This document shows positions 3 through 21,983 of a DNA stretch of 33,546 nt, one piece after another; the first letter of the stretch is position 1; the number at the start of each line of letters is the position of its first letter. The position numbers were made by a program, and so were the translations under genes. The DNA is from Chloroflexota bacterium (GTDB lineage: Bacteria; Bacteroidota; Bacteroidia; Bacteroidales; VadinHA17), in assembly GCA_050259395.1 (NCBI GenBank), contig JBLNAO010000161.1, forward strand, positions 1 to 33,546. Reading direction: 5' to 3'. Below the pieces are notes generated by a model. That model ran no database searches, was not told the DNA's origin, and saw only the letters and a program-made list of their open reading frames with translations.

Positions 3-3000
3 GTTAATGGTGGCAGGATTTCAGGAGCAAATTCAGCCTCTCTCACGATAGCAGCATCCGTTGCCGCTGATGCAGGCGCTTACACCTGTCTTGTCGATGG
101 TTCAGAGATAAGCGCGGCTGCAATAGTAACAATAAATCCTTCCACAGAAATAACGACCCATCCTCTAAGCGGAACAAAATGCTCCGGAGACATTCATATC
201 TTCTCTGTAACTGCAACCGGTGCCGGACTTTCATATCAATGGTACAAGGACGACCTCAGCTCACCGATACCAGGCGCATTCACATTTGAATATACCATCA
301 ATCCGGTCACAGTTTCAGATAACGGGACGTACTTCTGCGTAGTAACGGGTACCTGCGGACCAAAAACTAGTAACCCTGCAACACTGATCGTAAATGATCC
401 TGTAGCAATTGTTGCACAGCCTGTTGCACCTCCTCCGCTTTGTGAAGGAACATCAACTTCATTCAGATTCAATGTTACAGGAACGGGATTGACTTACCTA
501 TGGAAGAAAAATGGTCAGCCGATAACAGATGCAAATATTACAGGAATCAATGATCATACCCTTGTACTTTCCAATTCAGTTCTTACAAATTCCGGTGTTT
601 ACTCGTGCACTGTTACAGGTGCATGCAGCACACCCGTAACGAGTGACGATGTTGCGGTTACGGTAAATCCGGTCACTGCCATTGCAACTCAGCCCATAGG
701 CCGTGTAACCTGCGAGGGCGATGCAGTGACATTCACTGTAGCCGTAACAGGAACCAACCTGCTGTATGAATGGAGAAGGAATGGATCATCTCTCGGAGCT
801 CCTGCCCCGGGGAACCAGGTCTTAACAATAACCGGTTTGACAAAAGCATCGCACGAAGGCTCATATACATGTATAGTTTCAGGTGACTGCGGTGCTTCTG
901 TAACAAGCAACCCCGCAATATTAACAGTCAACAGGGTCACTTCAATCGGAGCGCCAGCAATCTCAGCCGCTACTATCTGTGAAGATGCTTCAACCAGGAT
1001 AACCATTACTGCAACCGGGGATGGATTGAACTATCTCTGGAAGAAGGGAGGCCAGCCAATAACAGCTGCAAACATAACAGGTATAACGACAAACGAGCTT
1101 GTAATATCAAATGCACAGGTCAGTGATGCCGGAATCTATACCTGCACCGTATCAGGCTTATGCGGAAGCCCGCTGACAAGCACAAATGCTGTGATAACAG
1201 TCAATCCGACTACTGTAATCACTGCTCAGCCTTCAGGATATACCAAATGTGCAGGTGATGAGGTGATATTTAATGTTGCTGCAGCAGGAAATATCTCTAC
1301 ATTCCAATGGTTTAAAGGCTCTGCACCGTTAATTGAAGGTGCACAGCCATCAGGCGCTGTCGTTACAGGATCAGGCACGAGCCAGCTGAAAATTACCGGC
1401 ATTACACCCTTCGAAGCAGCATCTTACACATGCTCAATTACGGGTTCATGTGGAAATATAAGTTCAGAACCTGCAGTACTTGTTGTTAATGTACCTGTCA
1501 TGATAAGTGCTGAACCTCCGGCTCTTACTACAATCTGCCAGGGCAGCTCGACTTCGGTAACTGTAACGACAACAGGGACAGTTACTTCATACCAATGGAA
1601 AAAGGATGGCAATAATCTAAGTAACACAGGAAGCTATGCAGGCGTCAATACAAATAGCCTCATAATTTCGAATGCTCTCCTTGCCGATGCAGGATTCTAT
1701 TCCTGCGAAATTGTCAGTAATTGCAATACAATCAGAACAATAAGTGCGGAATTGAGGGTCAATCCTCTGACTGCCATTACGCTGCAGCCTTCAAATGCAA
1801 CCCTTTGTGAGGGCGAAAATGTTCAGTTCATGGTGAATGCCACCGGCGGGCTTCCTCTCACATATCAGTGGAGGTTTAATAATGTGGCAATGCCTGGCGC
1901 CACTAATAATACACTTATAATAAATGGCATAAACAGCACCAATTCCGGGGCATATACCTGTTATATCACAAGCGCATCAGGATGCGGGACAGCCACAAGC
2001 AATCCGGCAAACCTTGTTGTGAATTCCGGTGCGAAGATCCTCACACAGCCTGTTAATACTGTTGTCTGCCAGGGCAGCACAGCAATAATATCTGTTGCGG
2101 CTTCAGGAACAGCGCCGCTAACATACAGGTGGAAGTACAACAATGTCAACATGACCGATGCAGGAAGGATTTCCGGAAGTTCAACAAATGAACTAAGGAT
2201 CTCAGGTTCTATTGATGGGGATGAAGGAATCTATAAATGTGAGGTAATAAGTCCCTGTGGTATTGTTGAAAGCAGTTCTGTTACCCTTACAGTGGACCCG
2301 GCAACCACCATTTCAATTCATCCGGCTAACCAGAATATTGTTCTGGGCACAACTGCAGTCTTCAGTGTTGCCGCAAGCGGCATAATAATAAGTTACCAGT
2401 GGCAAAAAGATGGTTCACCGCTTGTTGAGGATGGTATTAAGATCATCGGTTCAACATCAGCAATTCTTCGTGTTACGAATGTTGCTGTTGCTGATGCCGG
2501 ATCTTACAGGTGCGTTGTAACAGGTAAATGCGGAACACTTACTTCTAACCCGGGTATCCTCACTGTAAATGTTCCTGTCACTATAACAGCTTCGCCTGCT
2601 GATATTGATCAGTGCACAGGTGGCTCTGCCTCATTCATTGTTGTTGCCACAGGTTCGATTGTTTCTTACCGCTGGATGTTCAACGGGACCAGTCTTACAG
2701 ACGGAGGAGTGGTTTCAGGTTCAGATACACCTAATCTTGTCATTTCTTCCGTTGCTGCAGCAAATGAGGGTGACTATTCATGTATTGTTACAGGCACATT
2801 CAACACTGCAAACAGTAACGTTGCAGAACTTACTGTAAATGAGCCTGCTAATATTTCTGTTCAGCCGGTGTCACAGGCGCTTTGCCTTCACGACTGGCTG
2901 GTTCTTGAGGTTAATGCTACAGGTGAGAACTTAAGTTATGCATGGGAAAAGGATGGCGCCCCTGTTGCTGCCGATGCGAATACATCAGGAATAAATACTT

Positions 3001-3650
3001 CATTACTTGTAATTACTGATGTTACAGCTGCCCGCTCCGGCTCATACAGGTGCAGGGTATGGAATACCTGTAATGACGAAATGAGCAATGCAGCAGTCAT
3101 TACGATCAATCCTGCTTTGACCCTTGTTACATCGCCTTCGAACGACACTAAATGCGAGGGACAGAACACAACATTCTCAGCTTTGGCAACAGGAGTCAAC
3201 CTGCATTACCAATGGTATAAAGGAGGTGTGCTCCTTAACAACTCTGCAAGAGTGACGGGCGCCACTACAGCAAATCTTAAAATCAGTGTTTTACAGATGA
3301 GCGACCAGGATAGCTATTCATGTACTATCACTGACGACTGCAACACTGTTAACAGTGCTGCTGCCAGCCTCATTGTTAAAGAAAAAGTTGTGATCATACA
3401 GCAACCCCAGAATATGACTGTGTGTGAAGGTCAGAATGCCTTCTTCGAAGTAAGGGCTACTGGCTTCAACCTTCATTACCAGTGGCAGAAAGATGGAGTT
3501 AACCTGTCAGATGCAGGAAATATTTCAGGGTCAATACAATCTGTTCTTGTGATCAGTAATGCAGTTTTTGCCGACAGAGGCGTTTATAGATGTGTTGTAA
3601 CAGGCGACTGCAACAACTTCCTGACAAATACTGCATCTCTCACTGTTAAT
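3..3650 (+). repeat. Array of Ig-like (I-set-like) domains, ~90 aa each: 13 complete plus 1 partial in the window
   Basis: Recurrent pattern QP..x.C.G....F.V.A.G....Y.W.K....L.I......D.G.Y.C.V...C....S..A.L.VN, counted by the Y-x-C motif. Confidence 0.9.
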
Positions 3651-6600
3651 CTTCTTCCTGCTGCAGCCGGTGCCATTTCAGGTTCAACACTTATATGCCA
3701 GGGATCAACAAGGGTATTGTATGTTGTTCCCGCAATTGCAAATGCAACCAACTATGTCTGGAATCTGCCTCATGGTGCCGTAATAGTAAGCGGTACTGGC
3801 ACAAGATCGATCGAAGTGGATTACCCTGTCGGATCAGTATCAGGTGCAGTTTCAGTGTACGGAATTAATGGCTGTACCAATGGTGCTGCATCTTCCCTGG
3901 GTGTGACTGTTAATCCTCTTCCTCTTGCCGCTGCAGGACCCGACCAGATCCTTTGCACCGATGCGACTACACTCGCCGCAGATGCCACAGGATATCTTCC
4001 GGGTTCAGGATTATGGACAAAGCTTTCAGGGCAGGGGAATATCGCTGCACCTGCAGTTCCCAACAGCACTCTGACAGGCGTGGGACAGGGCGATAATGTT
4101 TTCAGATGGACCGTCACTGTAGGCGGCTGCACATCATTTGACGATGTTACAATCACAAACAGGAAAGTGAATGTCGATGCCGGCCCTGATCAGACGATAT
4201 GTTCGATGACAACAAGCGTGTTTGCGAACACTCCATCAGCAGGAGCAGGGTCATGGTCGATAGTCTCCGGGGGAGGATCGTTCAGCAACATGGCCGATCC
4301 CAGGGCAACTGTCATCAATCTTACAAGAGGTGCCAATATATTGAAGTGGTCCATAAACAATGGAGGCTGTATCAGTTCTGATGAGACAATAATCAGGAAC
4401 GACCTGCCGACCAATTCGGATGCCGGGGTAGACGCAATCCTTATTGTAGACAACTATACACTGGCAGCAAATGTTCCGGTGATCGGAACAGGTCAATGGA
4501 CACTGATAAGCGGCGCTGCGACTATAACTAATATCAATCTCTCTAATTCTACGGTAACCGGGCTTGGTATCGGCGACAACATCTTCAGATGGACAATCAC
4601 CAACAACCTTTGTTACAGTCAGGATGAAGTGAAGGTAACAAATTACACACCCACCGTCACCGATGCAGGGCCGAATCAAACCCTTTGCTCGGACCGCACC
4701 ACCCTGGCAGGCACAAAGCCGAATTACGGCACAGGACAGTGGTCGGTGGTGGCAGGTTCCGGTACTTTTACCGATCCTTACAAATGGGATAGCGAGGTGT
4801 TCAACATGGGAAAAGGGGCCAATGTCTACAAATGGACAGTGTATGAATATATGGTTACTTCCGATGAAGTGACAATAATCAATAACTCACCGTCTACAGC
4901 CAATGCTGGCATCGATCAGCGACTATGCGTTACTACATCGACCCTTGCAGCCAATAACCCGGTTATTGGAACGGGGGAATGGTCTGTCGTCGGCGGGTCA
5001 GGAACTATTGATAATCCATCATTATTCAACTCTGTGGTAAGTAACCTCGGATCTGGTTCCAATACTTTCCGGTGGACTGTAGCGAACGGAGGATGCAGCT
5101 CATACGATGAGGTGAATATTATAAACGAACAGCCAACCTTTGCAGAAGCAGGCGGTGATCAGATCATCTGTGCCGATTCGGTCAACCTTTATCCGAATAC
5201 TCCCACAATCGGAGTTGGTGAATGGAGCGTGGTTTCAGGGTCAGCATTTTTCAGAGGGAACAAGGCATACAATCTGGCCAGAGGCGATAATCGTTTTGCC
5301 TGGACTATCACCAATAATACATGCTCTCACACAGACATCGTGTCGATAACCAGTAACAAACCGACTACAGCTTATACCGGCGCGGACAAATCTATCTGTG
5401 TTGATAATATAACCCTCCCTGGGAATTCCCCGACTTATGGTACAGGGGTATGGACTGTTCTCAGCGGTTCTGGCAACATCCAGAATGCAGGCGATGCAAC
5501 TTCCACTGTTACGAACCTGGCACCGGGAAGCAACAGGTTCAGATGGACAATTACTTATAACGGTTGTGTATCTTTCGACGAGGTTGCGATCAGTTACGAT
5601 TTTATCTCTGCGAACGCGGGTGCGGACCAGGTGAACTGCCTTCCAAATGCAATGCTTAATGCGACCGATGCTGGTATTGGCAAAGGCCAGTGGACAGTCG
5701 TCGGAGGTTCGGGATCAGCCAATTTCACTAATCCGAACCAGTCAAATACCGAGGTCAGCAGCCTCGACAGGGGAATGAACATGCTGCGGTGGACAGTAAC
5801 CAATGCCGGCTGTGTATCCAGTGATGATGTTGTGATTACAAATAATTCACCAAGTACCGCATACGCTGGTTCAGACCGTTCTGTTTGTGGTGAAGAAATC
5901 TTACTGAATGCAAATACACCGCAGGTTGGTACTGCTGAGTGGAGCATATTGGGCGGATCAGCGGTCATAGCCAACACGACTTTGAGCAACTCGAAGGTTT
6001 CTAATTTGTCAATTGGCAGGAACGTGCTCAGGTGGACAGTCACAAACCTCGGATGCGTATCATCCGATGAAGTTGTCATCAACAACGATCAGCCCACAAA
6101 TATTGAGGCAGGCCCCAGCCAGTATTTATGCTCGGATAATACACAGCTATATGCAACCGCTCCTGTTGCAGGTTACGGCAGATGGTCAATACTCAAAGGA
6201 TCAGCTACAATTGTCGACAATACTCTGTACAATACCCGTATCACCAATCTTGGAAAAGGTGAGAACAAGCTGATCTGGACAGTGACAAGCGCAGGTTGCA
6301 GCAACTTTGATTCAGTGAACGTTGTGAACAATCTTCCGTCAGGTCCCAATGCAGGTCCTGACCTGGATATTTGCGCCGATAATGTTTTCATGTCCGCCAA
6401 TCAACCGGCGATCGGTACCGGGAAGTGGAGCGTGGTAAGCGGTTCTGCCACTTTCGGGAACTCCGGTTCACCGAATACCCCAACCACTCTGCTTGGGAAC
6501 GGACCCAATGTTCTGCGCTGGACAGTCTCAAATGGAAGTTGCATAATGTTCGATGAGGTTACGGTTCTGAACAGCATGCCAACAGTTGCTTATGCCGGTG

Positions 6601-7859
6601 AAGACCGCTCGGTATGTAACACAACTGCAAATCTTCTGGCAACAAATCCTGTTATCGGGACAGGATCATGGTCTGTCGTCAGCGGCTCGGGAATCTTAAG
6701 CGACACAACAACGTACAACAGCCAGATTTCAAATCTTGGATTCGGCCAGAATACACTGAGATGGACAACAGTAAGCGGACGTTGCAGAACTGTGGACGAT
6801 GTGATAATTACAAACAATCTCGCAGAGGTTTATGCAGGTCCTGACCAGGTTGTTTATCAGCCATCCGCCCGACTGATCGGTAACAAACCGTTAAAGGGAA
6901 CCGGACAGTGGGTGGTGCTGGCAGGCCTTGGATCTATCACAACCCCATCTGCATTTGAGACCGGCGTCACGGGTCTTGGAGGCGGTGCGAATTCTTTTGC
7001 ATGGACTATCAATAACGAGGGATGTATTGCCACGGACCAGGTAGTCATTACACACAGGGTAATGCCTGTTGCAGATTTTGAGCCTCTGCCCGGAAGCGGT
7101 TGCACTCCTCTGCATGTCAGCTTCGTCAATACCTCTGCCGGCGGCGCTCCCTACAGATGGGATTTCGGCGATGGCACTTCATCCACTGCTGCCAATACCA
7201 ACCACACTTATAATGTACCGGGAACTTATAAAGTAAGGCTCACAGCTACGGGGCCCGATGGCTTCCTTGTACATAAGGACACTGTTGTGATTGTGAGGCC
7301 AATACCTGTGGCCAGCTTTGAGATCACACCTGATACTGCATTCATCCCGGGCAATGCTATCCATTTCTTCAACCTCACACAGGGTATAGATTCATTACGC
7401 TGGGAATTTGGCGATGGCAATGTATCTACGGAAATGAATCCTTCATACAAGTATCAGGAAAAGGGAAGCTATGATGTAACTCTTCATGTGTGGTCGGGAT
7501 ACAAATGCTACGATTCAGTTGTGGTTCATAATGCAGTGTTCGTCGATCTTGCAGGTGTGATCAATTGTCCCAACGCATTCACTCCCAATCCGAACGGACC
7601 ATCAGGAGGACAATTCAACGAAAACGATTTCTCGAACGACGTATTCCATTGTTTCATCGAGGGTGCTGCACAGTATCACATGGAGGTATACAACAGGCTG
7701 GGAATCAGGTTGTTTGAAACAGATGATCTCAATATAGGCTGGGATGGTTACTTCAAAGGAAAGCTTGTCGAAGAGGGCGCTTATGTGTTTAAGGTCGTTG
7801 GAAGGTTCAACAACGGGCAGCCTTTTAATTATTTCGGTAACATCCTTGTGATTTATTAA
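3..7859 (+). CDS. Giant T9SS type-B cargo surface protein/adhesin (Ig-like repeats, PKD-like repeats, PKD domains, gliding motility-associated C-terminal domain); 5'-truncated
   Basis: The frame of the 489..7859 ORF is open back to position 3 (VNGGRISGANSASLTIAASVAADAGAYTCLV...YQWYK...TYFCVV), so the TTG at 489 is not the real start. It has Ig motifs (YxWxK...DxGxYxC), PKD motifs (WDFGDG, WEFGDG) and a C-terminal PNAFTPN...NDVF...VYNRLG...GWDG...EGAYVF type-B CTD. A PorP/SprF gene follows immediately. Confidence 0.95.
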   Translation, partial: VNGGRISGANSASLTIAASVAADAGAYTCLVDGSEISAAAIVTINPSTEITTHPLSGTKCSGDIHIFSVTATGAGLSYQWYKDDLSSPIPGAFTFEYTINPVTVSDNGTYFCVVTGTCGPKTSNPATLIVNDPVAIVAQPVAPPPLCEGTSTSFRFNVTGTGLTYLWKKNGQPITDANITGINDHTLVLSNSVLTNSGVYSCTVTGACSTPVTSDDVAVTVNPVTAIATQPIGRVTCEGDAVTFTVAVTGTNLLYEWRRNGSSLGAPAPGNQVLTITGLTKASHEGSYTCIVSGDCGASVTSNPAILTVNRVTSIGAPAISAATICEDASTRITITATGDGLNYLWKKGGQPITAANITGITTNELVISNAQVSDAGIYTCTVSGLCGSPLTSTNAVITVNPTTVITAQPSGYTKCAGDEVIFNVAAAGNISTFQWFKGSAPLIEGAQPSGAVVTGSGTSQLKITGITPFEAASYTCSITGSCGNISSEPAVLVVNVPVMISAEPPALTTICQGSSTSVTVTTTGTVTSYQWKKDGNNLSNTGSYAGVNTNSLIISNALLADAGFYSCEIVSNCNTIRTISAELRVNPLTAITLQPSNATLCEGENVQFMVNATGGLPLTYQWRFNNVAMPGATNNTLIINGINSTNSGAYTCYITSASGCGTATSNPANLVVNSGAKILTQPVNTVVCQGSTAIISVAASGTAPLTYRWKYNNVNMTDAGRISGSSTNELRISGSIDGDEGIYKCEVISPCGIVESSSVTLTVDPATTISIHPANQNIVLGTTAVFSVAASGIIISYQWQKDGSPLVEDGIKIIGSTSAILRVTNVAVADAGSYRCVVTGKCGTLTSNPGILTVNVPVTITASPADIDQCTGGSASFIVVATGSIVSYRWMFNGTSLTDGGVVSGSDTPNLVISSVAAANEGDYSCIVTGTFNTANSNVAELTVNEPANISVQPVSQALCLHDWLVLEVNATGENLSYAWEKDGAPVAADANTSGINTSLLVITDVTAARSGSYRCRVWNTCNDEMSNAAVITINPALTLVTSPSNDTKCEGQNTTFSALATGVNLHYQWYKGGVLLNNSARVTGATTANLKISVLQMSDQDSYSCTITDDCNTVNSAAASLIVKEKVVIIQQPQNMTVCEGQNAFFEVRATGFNLHYQWQKDGVNLSDAGNISGSIQSVLVISNAVFADRGVYRCVVTGDCNNFLTNTASLTVNLLPAAAGAISGSTLICQGSTRVLYVVPAIANATNYVWNLPHGAVIVSGTGTRSIEVDYPVGSVSGAVSVYGINGCTNGAASSLGVTVNPLPLAAAGPDQILCTDATTLAADATGYLPGSGLWTKLSGQGNIAAPAVPNSTLTGVGQGDNVFRWTVTVGGCTSFDDVTITNRKVNVDAGPDQTICSMTTSVFANTPSAGAGSWSIVSGGGSFSNMADPRATVINLTRGANILKWSINNGGCISSDETIIRNDLPTNSDAGVDAILIVDNYTLAANVPVIGTGQWTLISGAATITNINLSNSTVTGLGIGDNIFRWTITNNLCYSQDEVKVTNYTPTVTDAGPNQTLCSDRTTLAGTKPNYGTGQWSVVAGSGTFTDPYKWDSEVFNMGKGANVYKWTVYEYMVTSDEVTIINNSPSTANAGIDQRLCVTTSTLAANNPVIGTGEWSVVGGSGTIDNPSLFNSVVSNLGSGSNTFRWTVANGGCSSYDEVNIINEQPTFAEAGGDQIICADSVNLYPNTPTIGVGEWSVVSGSAFFRGNKAYNLARGDNRFAWTITNNTCSHTDIVSITSNKPTTAYTGADKSICVDNITLPGNSPTYGTGVWTVLSGSGNIQNAGDATSTVTNLAPGSNRFRWTITYNGCVSFDEVAISYDFISANAGADQVNCLPNAMLNATDAGIGKGQWTVVGGSGSANFTNPNQSNTEVSSLDRGMNMLRWTVTNAGCVSSDDVVITNNSPSTAYAGSDRSVCGEEILLNANTPQVGTAEWSILGGSAVIANTTLSNSKVSNLSIGRNVLRWTVTNLGCVSSDEVVINNDQPTNIEAGPSQYLCSDNTQLYATAPVAGYGRWSILKGSATIVDNTLYNTRITNLGKGENKLIWTVTSAGCSNFDSVNVVNNLPSGPNAGPDLDICADNVFMSANQPAIGTGKWSVVSGSATFGNSGSPNTPTTLLGNGPNVLRWTVSNGSCIMFDEVTVLNSMPTVAYAGEDRSVCNTTANLLATNPVIGTGSWSVVSGSGILSDTTTYNSQISNLGFGQNTLRWTTVSGRCRTVDDVIITNNLAEVYAGPDQVVYQPSARLIGNKPLKGTGQWVVLAGLGSITTPSAFETGVTGLGGGANSFAWTINNEGCIATDQVVITHRVMPVADFEPLPGSGCTPLHVSFVNTSAGGAPYRWDFGDGTSSTAANTNHTYNVPGTYKVRLTATGPDGFLVHKDTVVIVRPIPVASFEITPDTAFIPGNAIHFFNLTQGIDSLRWEFGDGNVSTEMNPSYKYQEKGSYDVTLHVWSGYKCYDSVVVHNAVFVDLAGVINCPNAFTPNPNGPSGGQFNENDFSNDVFHCFIEGAAQYHMEVYNRLGIRLFETDDLNIGWDGYFKGKLVEEGAYVFKVVGRFNNGQPFNYFGNILVIY
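3918..7055 (+). repeat. 13 tandem ~81-aa beta-sandwich (PKD-like) repeats
   Basis: Consensus P..A.AG.DQ..C.....L.AN.P..G.G.WSVVSGS..I.N....N..V.NL..G.N.FRWTV.N.GC.S.DEV.I.N seen 13 times. Confidence 0.9.
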
Positions 7860-7877: not shown

Positions 7878-8873
7878 ATGAGAAAGTTAATATTTTTCAT
7901 GCTGGTGTTGACAGTTTCCGGAAGCAGGTTTTGTCCCGGTCAGGATCCGGTATTCACACAGTTTTATGCGGCGCCGGTTTATCTGAGCCCCTCATTTGCA
8001 GGGGGAAGCGGAGAGTCGCGGATCATACTTAACTTCCGTGACCAGTGGCCAAAGCTGCCGGGTGATTATATAACTTTTGCACTTTCCGCAGATCATTATC
8101 TTGAAAAATTCAACAGTGGGGTAGGACTACTGCTTCTCCGTGATGAACTTGCGGGCGGACTGATCACCATGAATAATATCGGGCTGAACTACAATTACAA
8201 TTTTAAGATTAACAGGAAATGGACTCTAAGCCCGGGGCTGCAGGTTTATTATCACATGAAGCAGATCAATTATAACCAGCTCATTTTCAGCGACCAGATC
8301 TCGAGGGATTTTGTGCTGCCCGCATCGATAGAGATAGAGCGCCTGAGCTCTGTAAAACCCATAAGGCATCTTGATGTTACCAGTTCCCTCCTGGCTTACA
8401 ACGATAGGGTTTGGGCCGGGTTTACCGTAGATCACCTGCTTTCGCTCAACAGTTATCTTCGCAGCGAAGGCGGCTATCTTCCACTTAGGCTTTCAATCTA
8501 TGGCGGAGGAAAGTATGTCATCCCTGGAAGGAGAAGGAGCCAGACACAGGAGAGTATTTCAGGGGCATTCAATTTCATGATGCAGGATTACTACAAATAC
8601 CTCGATATAGGAGCCTATTACAGCCGGTCTCCGATGCTGTTCGGGTTATGGTACAGGGGATTGCCTGTCTTTTCCGACAACCCCAACAACGGGGCTATCA
8701 CGCTTCAGTTCGGATACACTTTCACCAACGTCAGCATGAGCTACAGTTATGACTACACGATCTCGAGGCTCATGACCAAGACCGGAGGAGCACATGAAGT
8801 TTCACTTGCATGGACCCTGCAGGAGGTGAAGAGAAAAGCAAAAAGAAGAATGATTCCCTGTCCTTCACTGTGA
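7878..8873 (+). CDS. PorP/SprF family type IX secretion system outer-membrane protein
   Basis: N-terminal QDPVFTQFYAAPVYLSPSFAG and FRDQWP, C-terminal YSYDYTIS..GGAHEVSL and a terminal CP motif; 18 bp downstream of a type-B CTD gene. Confidence 0.95.
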   Translation: MRKLIFFMLVLTVSGSRFCPGQDPVFTQFYAAPVYLSPSFAGGSGESRIILNFRDQWPKLPGDYITFALSADHYLEKFNSGVGLLLLRDELAGGLITMNNIGLNYNYNFKINRKWTLSPGLQVYYHMKQINYNQLIFSDQISRDFVLPASIEIERLSSVKPIRHLDVTSSLLAYNDRVWAGFTVDHLLSLNSYLRSEGGYLPLRLSIYGGGKYVIPGRRRSQTQESISGAFNFMMQDYYKYLDIGAYYSRSPMLFGLWYRGLPVFSDNPNNGAITLQFGYTFTNVSMSYSYDYTISRLMTKTGGAHEVSLAWTLQEVKRKAKRRMIPCPSL

Positions 8874-9826: not shown

Positions 9827-11068
9827 TTATTTGGTGAAATCGACTGTTAATGAGGGGTTTTTGCTTTCAAGGGTAACCTCCCTGGAGACTCCGTTAACAG
9901 TTACCTTATACCTGCCATAGAATGCATCAGTTGAATAAATCCCCTTCTTGCCGGCTGTTCCTGATCCGTTGGTCCACCATTCCTTAAAAATAAGATCCCT
10001 GTATGCCTCTGCTGCAGGTGTCGGAGTCCAGTCTCTCTTGTATAGCGAAGAAACAGGTATCCAGTTTGCCCCTTCCCAGAATCCCCACATAAGGATTCCT
10101 TTAACGGCAGGATGAGCAAAGCATATCCGGTAATAATCCGTGAGTTCTTTTGCCTTCACGGCCTCTTCTTCGGCGGTCATTACAGTTATTTTTTCCCTGT
10201 AATATTTTGATCTTTGCCCGGGGATGTTGAATTCGGTGATCCTTACCGGCAGCCCGAAGGTGTAAAGCGAATCGAGGGCTCTTCTGAGCTCAGTCCTGTC
10301 GAAGGTCTCGGCATGAAGGTGCCCCTGCGCGCCGATGCCTGCAACAGGAACACCCTGCGCGAGGAGTTTCCTTATGTGAGCCATGTATCTGTCGAGCATG
10401 TTGCCTGTAAGAACATCATAATCGTTAAGAAACAGTTTGGCGCCAGGGTCCCCGTTATGTGCCCATTCAGCCATCAGCCTGGTTATCTCAGGGCCAAGCC
10501 TGTCTTCATAATAGTTGCCATGAATCATCTCGTTGTTCAGGTCGTACTCGGCGAACCGTCCTTTATAATTCGAAGTTATGGATTCCCCTCTTCTTTGCAG
10601 GGTTTGGCTCAATTCTGCATCATCCAGGGCTTTTACCCAGGGTTGCACGAACTGTGGTATTCCCCAAAACAGGTTATGGCCACGAAGAGGGATATGGTTT
10701 TCCTCTGTCCATTTCAGGATGGCATCGACAACTGAATAATTCACCTTGCCCTTCTCTCTTTCCATATCGGGCCATTTTACGGCATTTTCAGTAACGGCTG
10801 AGTTGAAATTCAAAAGGAATTTTTCCTTATACTGTTTGATGTCATTTTCGGACCACCTGTCACCCACCATGCCGTTGCTGATTGCACAACCAAACCAGAA
10901 CTCGTGACTGAGCTGCCCGACAGTAACCTTATCGCCTTTTTTTGCGATGACCGTTATAATGCCTTTGCGGTATTTTGCTATTGAATCGTTTATCCCGGGA
11001 AACTGGGCATGCGCCTGGTTTATGGCAAAAAGAAAAATACAAACGAACAGCAAATTGCTCTTTTTCAT
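9827..11068 (-). CDS. Glycoside hydrolase family 10 (endo-1,4-beta-xylanase-like), secreted
   Basis: Signal peptide; motifs TENAVKW, LRGHNLFW, YDLNNE (acid/base Glu), LFLNDY, GIGAQGH, ITEF (nucleophile Glu), MWGFW. Confidence 0.92.
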   Translation of the reverse strand: MKKSNLLFVCIFLFAINQAHAQFPGINDSIAKYRKGIITVIAKKGDKVTVGQLSHEFWFGCAISNGMVGDRWSENDIKQYKEKFLLNFNSAVTENAVKWPDMEREKGKVNYSVVDAILKWTEENHIPLRGHNLFWGIPQFVQPWVKALDDAELSQTLQRRGESITSNYKGRFAEYDLNNEMIHGNYYEDRLGPEITRLMAEWAHNGDPGAKLFLNDYDVLTGNMLDRYMAHIRKLLAQGVPVAGIGAQGHLHAETFDRTELRRALDSLYTFGLPVRITEFNIPGQRSKYYREKITVMTAEEEAVKAKELTDYYRICFAHPAVKGILMWGFWEGANWIPVSSLYKRDWTPTPAAEAYRDLIFKEWWTNGSGTAGKKGIYSTDAFYGRYKVTVNGVSREVTLESKNPSLTVDFTK

Positions 11069-17128: not shown

Positions 17129-18628
17129 TTAAAAGATTTCTTTATCAAAGAATAGCCTTGTCAGCGGCGAGTCACCACCAATTTTAGCTGAAGCAGCCTC
17201 GTAATTCGAAGCATTTAACGTCTGTTCCGAAACCGGATAAAAGAGCCTGACAGGCACCTTGTTGATGCCTTGTTTGTAGTTGGGAGGAGCAAACAATTTT
17301 GGATAATCCAGCCTGCGGTAAGAATTCCAGAGTGTGTTTCCGCGCAGCCAGTAGGCTAACCATGCCTGAGTCCCGATCTTCTGTTTCCAGTCGCTGAATG
17401 CAGTGGAATAAGCCACAGATGGCTGTGCAAGGTATGCATTGGCTTCAGCTGCGGTGCCTCCCCAGTAAAGGATTGATGATCTGACTGCGTTATTATAGTG
17501 TCGTTCAGCAGTTCCGCCTACTGAAAAACCTCTTTCAACAGCTTCGGCCAGCAGGAATTCAGCCTCTGTATAATCCATTATAACCCAGGGTTTGTCCGGT
17601 CTCAGGTGTATTGGGTTGACATGGGAAAATGTTGTGAACCCGTTTGACTGACCCTGTGCTCCGCCAAGATATACGGAAGGCGTACTGCCAATGACAGGGA
17701 TCGCATAAACTCTGAGACGGGGATCGGTGACCGTAATATTTAAGATACTATGTTCAGGTGCAGGCTCTGTTGGCTGCATGGCATCGATCAGATTTGATGT
17801 TATAACATAGTCGTCACGCCCGGATGCAACAAAATCCACATACTGCTGGTTCTGATTAGGAGGCGATACCATGTATTGAAATGACATAACATCACCCTCT
17901 GTAAAGACATAGGGGGCAGCGCTTTCTGTAACAGCTTTCGAATAATTGTTGTCAGTATCGTAAAGCATCAAACCCATCCTGAGCTTTAGAGTGTTTGCGA
18001 ACTTGTACCACATAACAGTACCTTCTGCTGAACCACCAAAGATATTGTCATATCCGTCGGGCATGCCGGTCTCGGTTAGGGTCAGCTTGTTCACGGCTGC
18101 ATCGAGCCGGCTGATAAGATCTTTATAAATGGTCAGGGCGTCATCGTAAGCCGGTGAGGGATTGGTATAATCAAGCGCCTTTGTATATGGCATATCGCCA
18201 AAATTCTCGACAACATAACTCCATGCAAACACTGTCATTATTTCGACAATAGCCAGTTGATTATCGCGCTCTGCCTGGCTGACGCCTAACATCGACTGGG
18301 TTTTCAGCACCTTCGCAGCCTCCTGGTAATTCATCAGGACAAACCTGTACATCGTATTGGACGTGGCTACAGGAATTCCACGTGATGTCATATCATACCT
18401 GCTCTCATCGTAATATGTGGTGTTGGCGAGGTGCTGCATCCACATCAATGTAACATTGAGGTTCACATTTTGATTTGACAACTGGTTGATGAATTGCAGG
18501 GTAGCTCCGTTGTACAGCGATTCACCTGACACAACAGCAAAATCCTTTACGTTCACATTCAGATCCTCCAGTTTGCTGCAGGAAGAAAATGCCAGGAAAA
18601 ATGAAATGAGTATTAATAATTTTTTCAT
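17129..18628 (-). CDS. susD: SusD/RagB family nutrient-binding outer-membrane lipoprotein (SusD-like_2 type)
   Basis: Lipobox FSSC; FGDMPY..AL, KFANTLKLR, DPRL, EAEFLLAEA..RG, IGTQAW, YRRLDYP, PVRLFYP; directly downstream of susC. Confidence 0.95.
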   Translation of the reverse strand: MKKLLILISFFLAFSSCSKLEDLNVNVKDFAVVSGESLYNGATLQFINQLSNQNVNLNVTLMWMQHLANTTYYDESRYDMTSRGIPVATSNTMYRFVLMNYQEAAKVLKTQSMLGVSQAERDNQLAIVEIMTVFAWSYVVENFGDMPYTKALDYTNPSPAYDDALTIYKDLISRLDAAVNKLTLTETGMPDGYDNIFGGSAEGTVMWYKFANTLKLRMGLMLYDTDNNYSKAVTESAAPYVFTEGDVMSFQYMVSPPNQNQQYVDFVASGRDDYVITSNLIDAMQPTEPAPEHSILNITVTDPRLRVYAIPVIGSTPSVYLGGAQGQSNGFTTFSHVNPIHLRPDKPWVIMDYTEAEFLLAEAVERGFSVGGTAERHYNNAVRSSILYWGGTAAEANAYLAQPSVAYSTAFSDWKQKIGTQAWLAYWLRGNTLWNSYRRLDYPKLFAPPNYKQGINKVPVRLFYPVSEQTLNASNYEAASAKIGGDSPLTRLFFDKEIF

Positions 18629-18638
18629 GGTATTCCGA

Positions 18639-21600
18639 TTAAAAGTTAAGTTTTATGTTGAAAGTAAAATCACGGGTAGTGGGAAGTGATCCTGTTGTAT
18701 ACCCCTGGATATTTCCTGCCGTCATTCCCGATTCGGGATCGGCATATGGCAGACTTTTATGTATGATCCAGGGATTGGAAGCTATTGCACTAACTGACAC
18801 TCCTTTGATGAAAGTCCTGGAAAGCAATCCGGAAGGTAGGTTGTACGTTAAAATGATTTCTCTCAACTTTACATATCCTGCATCATATATAGCTGCCGAA
18901 TGGGGCATTAGGCCCGTTCCAAAAGCATCGGCATTGGTGGCATCAACACGGGTTTTATTGGGTGTGCTTAATCCGTCACCGCTGACATTTACACCCTCTA
19001 TGATGTAACCGCCGCTATTAGATGCATAACCTTTGCTGTGGTCATCTTCATCAACCCAGGCGATCGGATCCCTGACAGGATTACCCAGGTCATTGATAAA
19101 AGCGGTCTCCGGATATAATCCGCTTGAGAGGCCGTAATACATGTCGAGCGACCAGATGTCACCACCTTTCTGAATATCAACCAATGCGTGCAGGGATATA
19201 TTCTTATAACTTAATGAGTTGTTTATACCGGCTGTCCAGTCAGGAGTGAAGTTCCCTATAGGGATAGCTGCTGATGTGGTTAATATTGGTGTACCTGTTT
19301 CTTCATCGATAATTATTTTCCCGTTGGCATCATAGGTATAATCCTTGCCCTTGATGGTGCCGTAAGGTTTTCCAACCTCAGCGTTCACTGTTACACCACC
19401 TTGCAGGTTGACTGAATTCAGACGGAGATTCGTAATTCCGGGCAGCAAAGAGACCACCTTATTATTATTCTTCGCCCAGTTTACAGAAACATCCCACCTG
19501 AAGTCTCCGAAATTGAGTGGGTTGGCATTTAATGTAACTTCAATACCTTTATTTTCAAGTTCACCGGCATTGATCATTACGCTTGAGTAGCCTGTTGTCT
19601 GGCTGACAGTCAGTGGTATGATCTGGTCGAGTGAATTGGTTTTATACACCGCCAGGTCGAAGCCAAGACGGGCATTATAGAATGCCATTTCAAGACCGGC
19701 TTCAAGGCTGTTGGTACGTTCATTCTTCAATTCCGAATTCTTCTTTGCCGGGGCGAGCTGAGTGTTTGCGCCATTCATCGGGCTGTTGCCGACGTACATG
19801 TCAATAAGCTGATCAAATCCTGCAAGATTTCCGACCTGTGCATAATTCAGGCGAAGCTTGCCAAGTGACAGCCAGTCGGCTTTAACAAGATTGGAGAAAA
19901 GAAATGCTCCTGTAACTGAAGGATACCGGTATTTATTATTATCCACCGGCAATGTTGAAGCATAATCTTGCCGGAGAGTTCCATCGAGGAACAGGAAATC
20001 CCTGTAACCCAGCGAAGCGCTTACGTAGTAGCTTCTTACACCGACAGTCTGATTGACCTCTATCGGCATCGGCAACGCATTTCTTGTATTTTGAAGGGAG
20101 TAAACCCCGGGTACAGTCAATCCTCCATTTGTTGCATTATAGAAGAACGTGTTATTTGTTCTGCGTTCATTAAAGCCAAGTACCCCGTTAAGGCTGATCG
20201 ATTGCCCCAGCTTTTTATTGAATTTCATCATAAGGTCGAAATTGTATTCGCTGAAGGTATTGTCCCTGCGGATATATCCTGATGTGACCCTTTCGGGAAC
20301 GTTAGCCAGCCCAAACCGCATGGCAACACTTCCTTCAGCTCTTCTTTCTTCCTGCATTTCAAAATATGTATCGGCTGAAATACGTCCAAAAAGATCAAGC
20401 CAGCCTGTAATTTTGTAATTGGCTGATGCATTTCCAATAAAGCGGTTCCTGCTGTCTGTTTCATAGTTCTCAAAGGCATCCCAGTAAGGGTTATTCGAAT
20501 AGATTGGATAATTCAACGATGAATTATAGTTCCAGCTCAAATTTCTTTTTGTGAGCTCATAAGCAGTTTTCAGGTCCCTGAAATCAAGGTTTGTTTGTTG
20601 CCACTGGCGGAAATTTGAAACTATATTCCCGTTGTATCCTGTCGTGTTACGGCCTTTGCCGTTTTGTTTAATATAATTGGCGCTTCCTGCAACAGTAAAC
20701 TTTTTATTGATATTCCACTGCCCGTTCAGAGTTATATTATGTCTCTTCAATGAACTGTTTGGCTGCAATCCTGTAGTGTTGTAGTTGGTATACGACAACC
20801 TGACGGAACTGAAATCAGTCGCTTTGTCAATTGCTACTGTATTTGTGTATGTGTAAGGTGTTTCAAAGAAAGTAATCGGGCCGTTTTTTGAAAATTCATA
20901 AGGTTTTGATTGCATGTACCAGGGCGATTCGGGGTCGACCGAATACCAGCCCCAAATCGGCTGACCGTCGAATGCCGGTCCGAAAGATGCGTCTTCCGTC
21001 GTCTGCAGCCACCTCACCAAAGGATCATTTACCGGATCATTCGTGGTAATACTTCCCGATTTGGTCCTCAATGCAAAATCAGGAGGATCTCCGTAACCAT
21101 AGCCTGCACCATACTGATCCTGGTAGACAGGGAATGTCGATTTATCGATTTTGCTGAAAGTGAAACCGGAACTATATGAAATCCCTAAAGGCGCCTTTTC
21201 ACCTTCATTCAGTATCCGTCCCTTTTTGGTCGTGATCATTATGACGCCTGCGGATGCCCGGGAGCCATAAAGGGCTGTTGCCGCGGAGCCTTTCAAAACA
21301 TTGATTGATTCAATGCTCTCAGGATCAATATCAGCTGCGGCATTGCCATAATCATAACCTGCAACAGTTGCAGCCTGGCCCGGAGTCACACCGACTTCGG
21401 TGTATTTCCCAATAGTATTATTGATAGGAACTCCATCAACAACGTACAATACCTGGTTGCTGTTAACAAGTGATTTGCTGCCGCGGACTATTACGTTGGT
21501 AGAACCACCCATGTTCTGGTTCCTTTGAACCTGCACTCCCGAGATCTTACCCGAGAGGGTATTCATAAAGTTTGAGGTTTTAACCTGGGAAAGAGATTCC

Positions 21601-21983
21601 CCTTTCACTTCCTGGGTTGAATAGCCCAGCGATTTTTTTTCACGCGAAATGCCAAGTGCCGTAACAACAACTTCATCCAACCCCGTTATAGCCGGTTCAA
21701 GGATAACGTTGACAGTGGTTTTTCCAGACACTTCAACTTCCTGTCTCTTCATACCTACATATGAAAACACCAGTGTTGCGCCTTCCTGCTGTACAGGAAG
21801 CGAGTATTTCCCGTTAATATCGGTCAGCGTACCGGCTGTTGTGCCTTTTATTGATACTGTTACACCAACCATCGGTTCTCCTCCATCCAGTGATGTCACA
21901 GTACCGGATACCGACCGGTTCTGTTGTGCTGACAGGAATCCTGAAAGGAGAAAAAGACTGATTATCAAAAAGAGATTCTTCAT
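18639..21983 (-). CDS. susC: SusC/RagA family TonB-dependent outer-membrane transporter
   Basis: CarboxypepD_reg-like N-terminus, LDEVVVTALGISREKKSLGYS, DIDPESIESINVLKGSAATALYGSRASAGVIMITTKKG signature, terminal Phe. Confidence 0.97.
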   Translation of the reverse strand: MKNLFLIISLFLLSGFLSAQQNRSVSGTVTSLDGGEPMVGVTVSIKGTTAGTLTDINGKYSLPVQQEGATLVFSYVGMKRQEVEVSGKTTVNVILEPAITGLDEVVVTALGISREKKSLGYSTQEVKGESLSQVKTSNFMNTLSGKISGVQVQRNQNMGGSTNVIVRGSKSLVNSNQVLYVVDGVPINNTIGKYTEVGVTPGQAATVAGYDYGNAAADIDPESIESINVLKGSAATALYGSRASAGVIMITTKKGRILNEGEKAPLGISYSSGFTFSKIDKSTFPVYQDQYGAGYGYGDPPDFALRTKSGSITTNDPVNDPLVRWLQTTEDASFGPAFDGQPIWGWYSVDPESPWYMQSKPYEFSKNGPITFFETPYTYTNTVAIDKATDFSSVRLSYTNYNTTGLQPNSSLKRHNITLNGQWNINKKFTVAGSANYIKQNGKGRNTTGYNGNIVSNFRQWQQTNLDFRDLKTAYELTKRNLSWNYNSSLNYPIYSNNPYWDAFENYETDSRNRFIGNASANYKITGWLDLFGRISADTYFEMQEERRAEGSVAMRFGLANVPERVTSGYIRRDNTFSEYNFDLMMKFNKKLGQSISLNGVLGFNERRTNNTFFYNATNGGLTVPGVYSLQNTRNALPMPIEVNQTVGVRSYYVSASLGYRDFLFLDGTLRQDYASTLPVDNNKYRYPSVTGAFLFSNLVKADWLSLGKLRLNYAQVGNLAGFDQLIDMYVGNSPMNGANTQLAPAKKNSELKNERTNSLEAGLEMAFYNARLGFDLAVYKTNSLDQIIPLTVSQTTGYSSVMINAGELENKGIEVTLNANPLNFGDFRWDVSVNWAKNNNKVVSLLPGITNLRLNSVNLQGGVTVNAEVGKPYGTIKGKDYTYDANGKIIIDEETGTPILTTSAAIPIGNFTPDWTAGINNSLSYKNISLHALVDIQKGGDIWSLDMYYGLSSGLYPETAFINDLGNPVRDPIAWVDEDDHSKGYASNSGGYIIEGVNVSGDGLSTPNKTRVDATNADAFGTGLMPHSAAIYDAGYVKLREIILTYNLPSGLLSRTFIKGVSVSAIASNPWIIHKSLPYADPESGMTAGNIQGYTTGSLPTTRDFTFNIKLNF

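Follow-up and report, generated by a model that had tools for sequence, protein, structure and literature searches.

Domain organisation and cysteine pattern of a giant putative surface protein

The window analysed here spans positions 1 to 33,546 of contig C161 (JBLNAO010000161.1), which belongs to a 3.49-Mb draft genome in 422 contigs (81.5% complete). It opens with a gene for a giant putative type IX secretion system (T9SS) cargo, which is truncated at its 5′ end (positions 3–7859, plus strand); its open reading frame (ORF) of 2618 amino acids is open at the contig start. The encoded protein is laid out as 14 immunoglobulin-like (Ig) domains, the first of them partial, one PKD_6-like domain, 13 K319L-like PKD repeats, two PKD domains and a putative type-B C-terminal domain (CTD). 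The partial Ig0 (aa 1–45; positions 3–137) is followed on the plus strand by the I-set-like Ig1–Ig13 (aa 46–1216; 138–3650), the PKD_6-like connector domain (aa 1217–1310; 3651–3932), repeats R1–R13 (aa 1311–2358, 76–83 residues each; 3933–7076), PKD1 and PKD2 (about aa 2359–2436 and 2437–2514; 7077–7544), and a linker with the CTD (7545–7859). The Ig domains match PF13927 (Ig_3) with 338 bits over 13 stretches and PF07679 (I-set) with 309.4 bits over 11 stretches, both above the curated cut-offs, and the repeats score 91.5 bits with PF22352 (K319L-like PKD), well clear of its cut-off of 27. The C-terminal tail scores just under the cut-off of PF13585 CHU_C (26.4 against 27 bits) and below that of TIGR04131 (25.6 against 35 bits), and a local CTD profile built from the tails of 71 homologues matches it with an E value of 1.7e-14. 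Directly downstream lies a gene for a PorP/SprF-family outer-membrane protein (7878–8873, plus strand; PF11751, scoring 175.3 bits where the cut-off is 22.3), a family that is the usual partner of cargo with a type-B CTD. Homologues are annotated as ‘gliding motility-associated C-terminal domain-containing protein’, and the nearest named one, P0041, with 68% identity over the repeat region, comes from a Bacteroidales metagenome-assembled genome. The best explanation of these features is that the gene product is a giant cell-surface protein exported by type IX secretion, in which about 30 Ig-like beads are strung together.

The ORF contains 67 cysteines. Apart from a few losses, each domain carries one N-proximal cysteine and one late cysteine in a hairpin, and the full cysteine list agrees exactly with the positions given in a preliminary description of this sequence. 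The N-proximal cysteine is absent from Ig9 (V780 in its place, NIVLG), R3 (I1481, DAILIVD), R13 (Y2285, DQVVYQP) and PKD2, and the late cysteine from Ig0, Ig10 (F933, GTFNT), R4 (YEY-MVT) and PKD1 (TGPDGFL); both are present in all remaining domains. As that description had also pointed out, each internal loss of an N-proximal cysteine coincides with the loss of the late cysteine in the next domain, namely at Ig9–Ig10 (2298–2840), R3–R4 (4422–4904) and R13–PKD1 (6834–7310), all on the plus strand. Both cysteine states are readable at 28 junctions in the window (Ig1–Ig2 through PKD1–PKD2), for which the chance of an exact three-for-three offset match is 1/C(28,3), or 1 in 3276, and pairing within the same domain would leave six orphan cysteines. 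Together with co-variation in homologues, the orthologues and the cryo-electron microscopy (cryoEM) structure of a relative, this pattern makes it highly probable that a disulfide, here called a staple, connects the cysteine at the end of strand A/A′ in domain n to the FG-hairpin cysteine of domain n+1 at nearly every junction.

A third cysteine, which the preliminary description did not include, lies in the F strand (YxC) of all 14 Ig domains (C29 in Ig0), and the 13 B strands contain none. The canonical B–F disulfide of the Ig core is absent, and the F-strand cysteine is presumably a buried free thiol. Among the cysteine-rich relatives described below, an F-strand cysteine is found in 1044 of 1887 Ig domains and a B-strand cysteine in 14. 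Conservation of the cysteines outside the Ig array and the repeats was assessed in the query and 16 orthologues (61–71% identity to the query). C1232 and C1291, the N-proximal and late cysteines of the PKD_6-like domain, are conserved in all 17 sequences, as are C2367 and C2502, the only cysteines of PKD1 and PKD2, respectively, for which the pairing rule predicts a PKD1–PKD2 bond. The linker and CTD cysteines C2522 and C2550 are also conserved in 17 of 17, whereas the tails of other families have zero or one cysteine; these two may pair with each other.

Predicted structures of tandem domains

AlphaFold2 (AF2) models were obtained for Ig2–Ig3 (predicted local distance difference test score (pLDDT) 95.7; predicted template-modelling score (pTM) 0.80) and for R5–R6 (pLDDT 95.8; pTM 0.79), from alignments made up of 12 overlapping di-domains of the window protein itself. 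Both pairs are confidently predicted to form end-to-end tandems. Secondary structure assignment of the models by DSSP showed that the N-proximal cysteine ends strand A/A′, directly before strand B, and that the late cysteine lies in the F–G turn or is the first residue of strand G, in agreement with the strands to which the two cysteines had been assigned at the outset. In an Ig fold, the end of A/A′ is at the C-terminal pole of the domain and the F–G turn is at the N-terminal pole. The two cysteines of one domain are thus held at opposite poles, where they cannot meet each other, and instead face their counterparts across a head-to-tail junction. The Ig2–Ig3 model superposes on MuSK Ig1–2 with a Z score of 16.3 and a root mean square deviation (rmsd) of 2.4 over 172 of 179 residues.

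Cysteine losses are coupled between neighbouring domains

Profiles for both domain types were built from the copies in the window, and cysteines were scored around profile positions 15 and 77 in Ig domains and 8 and 64 in the repeats. In a first homologue set of 120 proteins with 3897 repeat domains, the two cysteines facing an adjacent repeat junction were both lost 26 times and both kept 2977 times, with one loss of the N-proximal cysteine only and none of the late cysteine only. Within single repeat domains there were no co-losses, against 63 losses of the N-proximal and 35 of the late cysteine alone. A second set, drawn from an exhaustive profile search, consisted of 150 representatives with less than 50% identity to each other, comprising 95 cysteine-rich proteins, 52 cysteine-poor ones with hardly any staple cysteines, and 3 mixed ones. 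Forward pairs (n to n+1) in the 95 cysteine-rich proteins gave 62 junctions with both cysteines lost, 4 with only the N-proximal and 2 with only the late cysteine lost, and 1660 with both kept (phi 0.95); the late cysteine of the next domain was thus also absent at 62 of the 66 junctions lacking the N-proximal one. The corresponding counts were 1, 97, 81 and 1745 within the same domain, 7, 73, 62 and 1586 for the reverse neighbour (phi 0.05), and 0, 54, 54 and 1458 between domains n and n+2. The coupling over homologous domain pairs therefore runs in the forward direction that the preliminary description had proposed, and not within domains or in reverse.

These counts bear on the default expectation for Ig-like domains with two cysteines, which is an ordinary intradomain bond between the N-proximal and the hairpin cysteine, or else a short-range bond from the hairpin of one domain to the N-proximal cysteine of the next. 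Although most domains do carry both cysteines, co-loss within a domain was seen in none of the 98 repeats and in only one of the 179 Ig domains of cysteine-rich proteins that had lost a cysteine, the near-zero phi for reverse neighbours speaks against the short-range bond, and the fold itself, by topology and in the DSSP assignments, separates the two positions of a domain. In P0231 and the first half of P0189, domains with only an N-proximal cysteine alternate with domains having only a late one, such that a potential pair occurs at every second junction and no domain has two cysteines. Arrays of this kind are incompatible with any intradomain pairing, and in P0231 the single-cysteine state holds throughout. 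With every second junction stapled, they would form a chain of covalent di-domain units. Taken together, the data leave both conventional bonds extremely unlikely.

The ends of the arrays give an independent view of the same rule. Among 57 proteins in which the last repeat abuts the CTD, 15 lacked the N-proximal cysteine in that repeat and had no cysteine in the tail, and 39 had the N-proximal cysteine and exactly one cysteine in the tail, so that 54 of the 57 were consistent with pairing into the next element and three were exceptions. The rule is likewise obeyed by another protein from this genome. Encoded on the minus strand of contig C416 by an ORF of 717 amino acids, it has a trypsin-like serine protease fused to a PKD_6-like domain, a pair of Ig domains like those of the window protein, and a C-terminal tail; the N-proximal cysteine is absent from its last Ig domain, and the part downstream of it contains no cysteine. 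This ORF, the only other one in the genome with Ig domains, was considered as the upstream part of the window gene and rejected because it belongs to a different protein.

The orthologues extend the pattern beyond the contig start. Since Ig0 has no hairpin cysteine, the domain before it had been predicted to lack its N-proximal cysteine, and the domain preceding the Ig0 counterpart in the orthologues does lack it; this domain is fully scored in P0040 and only partly covered in P0035, P0041 and P0078. The Ig0 counterpart forms the half of a second gap that lacks the late cysteine; this gap lies upstream of the Ig9/Ig10 one and is separated from it by eight stapled Ig domains. Full-length orthologues have four unstapled junctions, three of which are in the window.

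A solved relative with disulfides between neighbouring domains

When the R1–R13 profile was compared with the PDB, it gave a single match, grappling-hook protein A (GhpA) of Aureispira sp. CCB-QB1 (PDB 9flp, 9fly, 9g8b and others), with an E value of 1.1e-78 and 11 stretches at 4761–5724; R1–R13 are homologous to its base repeats. The best structural match of the R5–R6 model is likewise in this protein (9fly_A, 4761..4934; Z 12.4, 156 of 157 residues aligned, rmsd 6.2, 35% identity). According to the accessible text of the GhpA preprint, cryoEM revealed intramolecular disulfides between neighbouring Ig-like domains, for example Cys2988–Cys3140, to which the authors attribute the straight and rigid stem (10.1101/2024.01.29.577165). 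A stem domain of GhpA has about 83 residues, as judged from a three-domain period of 249 residues. The 152 residues between Cys2988 and Cys3140 are more than one domain and less than two, so that the bond joins an early position to a late position of the next domain, and its spacing compares with 148–149 residues for the predicted pairs in the Ig part of the window protein. P0190 (5901 aa), a candidate for GhpA itself among the homologues, was rejected as its Ig domains have no staple cysteines.

Whether the rule had been described before was left undecided in the preliminary description. Disulfides between neighbours were already known in GhpA, and in this respect the staple is not new in kind; the present case chiefly generalises a documented principle and adds a member to it. 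In the accessible text of the preprint, a single bond is named as an example, in a supplementary legend, and neither a co-variation rule nor staple gaps are mentioned (10.1101/2024.01.29.577165). Neither the near-deterministic rule from domain n to n+1 that holds across domain families, nor the co-loss, nor the boundary condition at the CTD, nor the alternating arrays were found in the literature searched, which did not extend to subscription-only papers and bioRxiv supplements.

Evidence weighing against the staples, and a possible route of disulfide formation

Several observations weigh against stapling as proposed here. In the first homologue set, the query and its 16 orthologues contributed every one of the 22 Ig events and 17 of the 26 events in repeats, and these are not independent. 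Across all 150 representatives, 21 junctions had lost only the N-proximal cysteine and 6 only the late one, against 1172 and 1682 concordant junctions, although most of the 21 lie outside the cysteine-rich set. Orphan late cysteines occur in P0168 and in the second half of P0189. The agreement in topology between GhpA and the window protein is suggested by the spacing of 152 residues rather than by a residue-by-residue mapping. Finally, family searches for VKOR, DSBA, DsbB and Thioredoxin_4 found none of them in the protein’s own genome, which at 81.5% completeness does not prove their absence, and non-consecutive disulfide pairs need isomerisation in Escherichia coli.

The shared descent of many events raises the question of whether the coupling could arise by chance or as an artefact of ancestry or alignment, particularly as the same events are repeated in the orthologues and the profile columns were defined from the window protein. 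After removal of the query and the 16 orthologues, however, the first set still contained 9 co-losses in 9 of 103 proteins, with one exception among 2800 junctions, and the cysteine-rich set without its two orthologues contained 60 co-losses in 34 of 93 proteins, with 6 exceptions. The same-domain, reverse and n+2 controls, taken from the same alignments, show no association, the array ends follow the rule independently, and the window alone makes coincidence improbable at the odds given above. Chance or artefact thus has a negligible probability. As for the discordant junctions, extra or displaced cysteines lie nearby in three of the eight listed exceptions, P0006, P0127 and P0165 (WTVCKNGLC; linker cysteine in TNCTP; NCCG), which suggests compensation by a new local partner.

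A different alternative accepts the contact and denies the bond. The two cysteines might touch across the junction without forming a disulfide in vivo, serving as free thiols or as a metal site, or being oxidised only outside the cell. That the four oxidative-folding families were not found in the 81.5%-complete genome would fit such a state, as would the origin of P0041 from Bacteroidales, a mostly anaerobic order. On the other hand, two thiols make a poor metal site and the strict loss of both partners is a classic disulfide signature. The GhpA structure moreover contains real disulfides between neighbouring domains, as described in the accessible text of its preprint (10.1101/2024.01.29.577165). 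Periplasmic disulfides are also formed in Bacteroidota, namely in SprF–GldK and PorG, according to the accessible part of a study whose subject is the SprF/PorG–GldK disulfides and not cargo staples (PMC12635249). We consider an unbonded contact improbable. The preliminary proposal of a bond from each domain to the next is strongly supported by the coupling over thousands of junctions, the orthologues and the GhpA cryoEM structure, and it is by extension from these that we infer the bond in the window protein itself.

The cargo would apparently need about 30 non-consecutive disulfides, and none of the four oxidative-folding families was found in the genome searched. The folded structure might act as a template for oxidation. 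Real staples would raise the question of how disulfides that interleave and link non-consecutive cysteines come about in an organism whose 81.5%-complete genome shows no recognisable Dsb system.

A proposed model of a stapled array with unstapled junctions

In the model we propose, the cysteine at the end of the first strand of almost every bead (A/A′, C-terminal pole) would bond to the F–G hairpin cysteine of the next bead (N-terminal pole), giving two covalent links per junction, the peptide linker and the staple. Successive staples would interleave, with the N-proximal (N) and late (L) cysteines in the order N(k) < N(k+1) < L(k+1) < L(k+2), such that the shortest covalent path would run through stretches of about 28 residues (strand G plus A/A′) alternating with jumps across S–S bonds. 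With so short a path, a fully stapled array should hardly lengthen even if its domains were pulled open, and almost no domain-unfolding steps would be expected under force until the protein is reduced. The staples would also restrain bending and twisting at the junctions. Loss of one cysteine would leave a reactive orphan, whose partner would then be lost rapidly; loss of the orphaned partner would explain why the co-losses are offset by one domain. An unstapled junction would be held by the linker alone. A single missing staple would, however, be bypassed by the neighbouring staples, which would preserve tensile protection and free only local bending and torsion.

The preliminary description divided the rod into rigid segments by three built-in hinges, a claim that lacks support as it was written. 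Its central idea, that the unstapled junctions are selected flexible joints, draws on the conservation of the gaps, since the orthologues lack staples where the query lacks them: the R3/R4 gap is kept in 16 of 16 orthologues, the R13/PKD1 gap is shared in the same way, and the Ig9/Ig10 gap is kept in 15 of 16, P0049 having too few Ig domains. Such gaps are rare outside the orthologues (60 of 1695 Ig junctions and 9 of 2800 repeat junctions), which indicates strong selection for staples and makes the gaps stand out, and interleaving would allow one missing staple to free bending without a loss of tensile protection. Against this, full-length orthologues have four gaps rather than three, and regaining a lost pair requires two changes, so conservation can be plain inheritance. 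The linkers are not longer either: the distance between fixed profile positions has a median of 13 at both 1600 stapled and 61 unstapled Ig junctions, and of 13 at 25 unstapled against 14 at 2869 stapled repeat junctions, the latter comparison being confounded by protein family. There is hence no sign of designed flexibility in the linkers, and the residues that replace lost pairs are varied, with no clean pattern among them. Finally, the two Ig domains of P0040 that lack the N-proximal cysteine are mutual best paralogues (50% identity), which hints that one gap may have been copied from the other by duplication. We therefore regard programmed hinges as rather unlikely; the gaps may instead be neutral relics.

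A broader form of the model remains speculative. It holds that a ‘staple code’ operates near-deterministically across unrelated Ig-like families, that two interleaved ladders of staples render the array practically inextensible, and that the conserved gaps, whether single or at every second junction as in P0231, are programmed bending points; as a whole we hold this only tentatively and would not expect it to prove correct. If it did, sequence alone would reveal how a surface filament is segmented and how stiff it is. The narrower claim has consequences of its own. Provided that the staples are real, a simple rule read from sequence would predict how thousands of giant, as yet uncharacterised surface proteins of Bacteroidota are wired covalently, with a reach that would include gliding adhesins, predation hooks and enzyme stalks, and would tell doubly linked junctions from those held by a linker only.

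Genomic neighbourhood

Further downstream of the cargo gene, the window contains a neighbourhood of the polysaccharide-utilisation type. A GH10 glycoside hydrolase is encoded at 9827–11068 on the minus strand, and a SusD-like protein and a TonB-dependent receptor (SusC-like) form a pair at 17129–18628 and 18639–21983, both on the minus strand.

Comparison with known systems

The general plan of the window protein is that of SprB from Flavobacterium johnsoniae and other giant adhesins with a type-B CTD (CHU_C), that is, a giant repeat protein ending in this domain, which in the window protein is putative, with a PorP/SprF gene directly downstream. It differs from SprB in that the present data do not indicate a role in gliding. 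Interdomain disulfides in SprB are not described in the accessible text of either the GhpA preprint (10.1101/2024.01.29.577165) or the SprF/PorG–GldK study (PMC12635249).

In fold and in extended end-to-end arrangement, the Ig part resembles eukaryotic I-set rods such as titin I65–I70, MuSK Ig1–2 and Robo, with which the modelled Ig pair aligns at Z scores of 15–16 and rmsd values of 2.4–3.0 over 172–173 of 179 residues. The B–F intradomain disulfide of those rods is replaced here by a predicted pair that spans the junction. Among solved sequences, the Ig domains are nearest to those of phage tail Ig-like proteins (9ncf_S and 9c2d_S, E 5e-36). These and the 52 cysteine-poor representatives share the same repeat of 80–90 residues with an F-strand cysteine, but both staple positions are non-cysteine throughout, or nearly so in the representatives. 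A type-B CTD was found in none of the 52 cysteine-poor representatives and in 33 of the 95 cysteine-rich ones, and stapling looks bound to a lineage. Many of the long cysteine-poor arrays end in other anchors, for example a run of hydrophobic residues with basic ones after it, or a terminus of the FYR type.

Tandem Ig-like repeats make up both GhpA, a giant T9SS cargo protein, and the window protein, a putative one. GhpA forms a heptameric hollow stem with hooks used in predation, whereas nothing in the present data indicates oligomers of the window protein. The I-set-like Ig domains of the window protein are only distantly like the GhpA stem (E 7e-4), and GhpA is absent from the best 60 Ig-profile matches listed and from the listed Foldseek/VIA matches of the Ig di-domain.

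Other bacterial repeat adhesins are stiffened by different chemistry, through linkers rigidified by Ca2+ in RTX and Big-domain adhesins and through isopeptide bonds in Gram-positive pilins. The apparent purpose is the same in each case, a long, stiff and force-resistant stalk of Ig-like domains. The window protein differs from these adhesins in the predicted means, which would be a disulfide across the domain interface rather than a linker metal site or an isopeptide bond within the domain.

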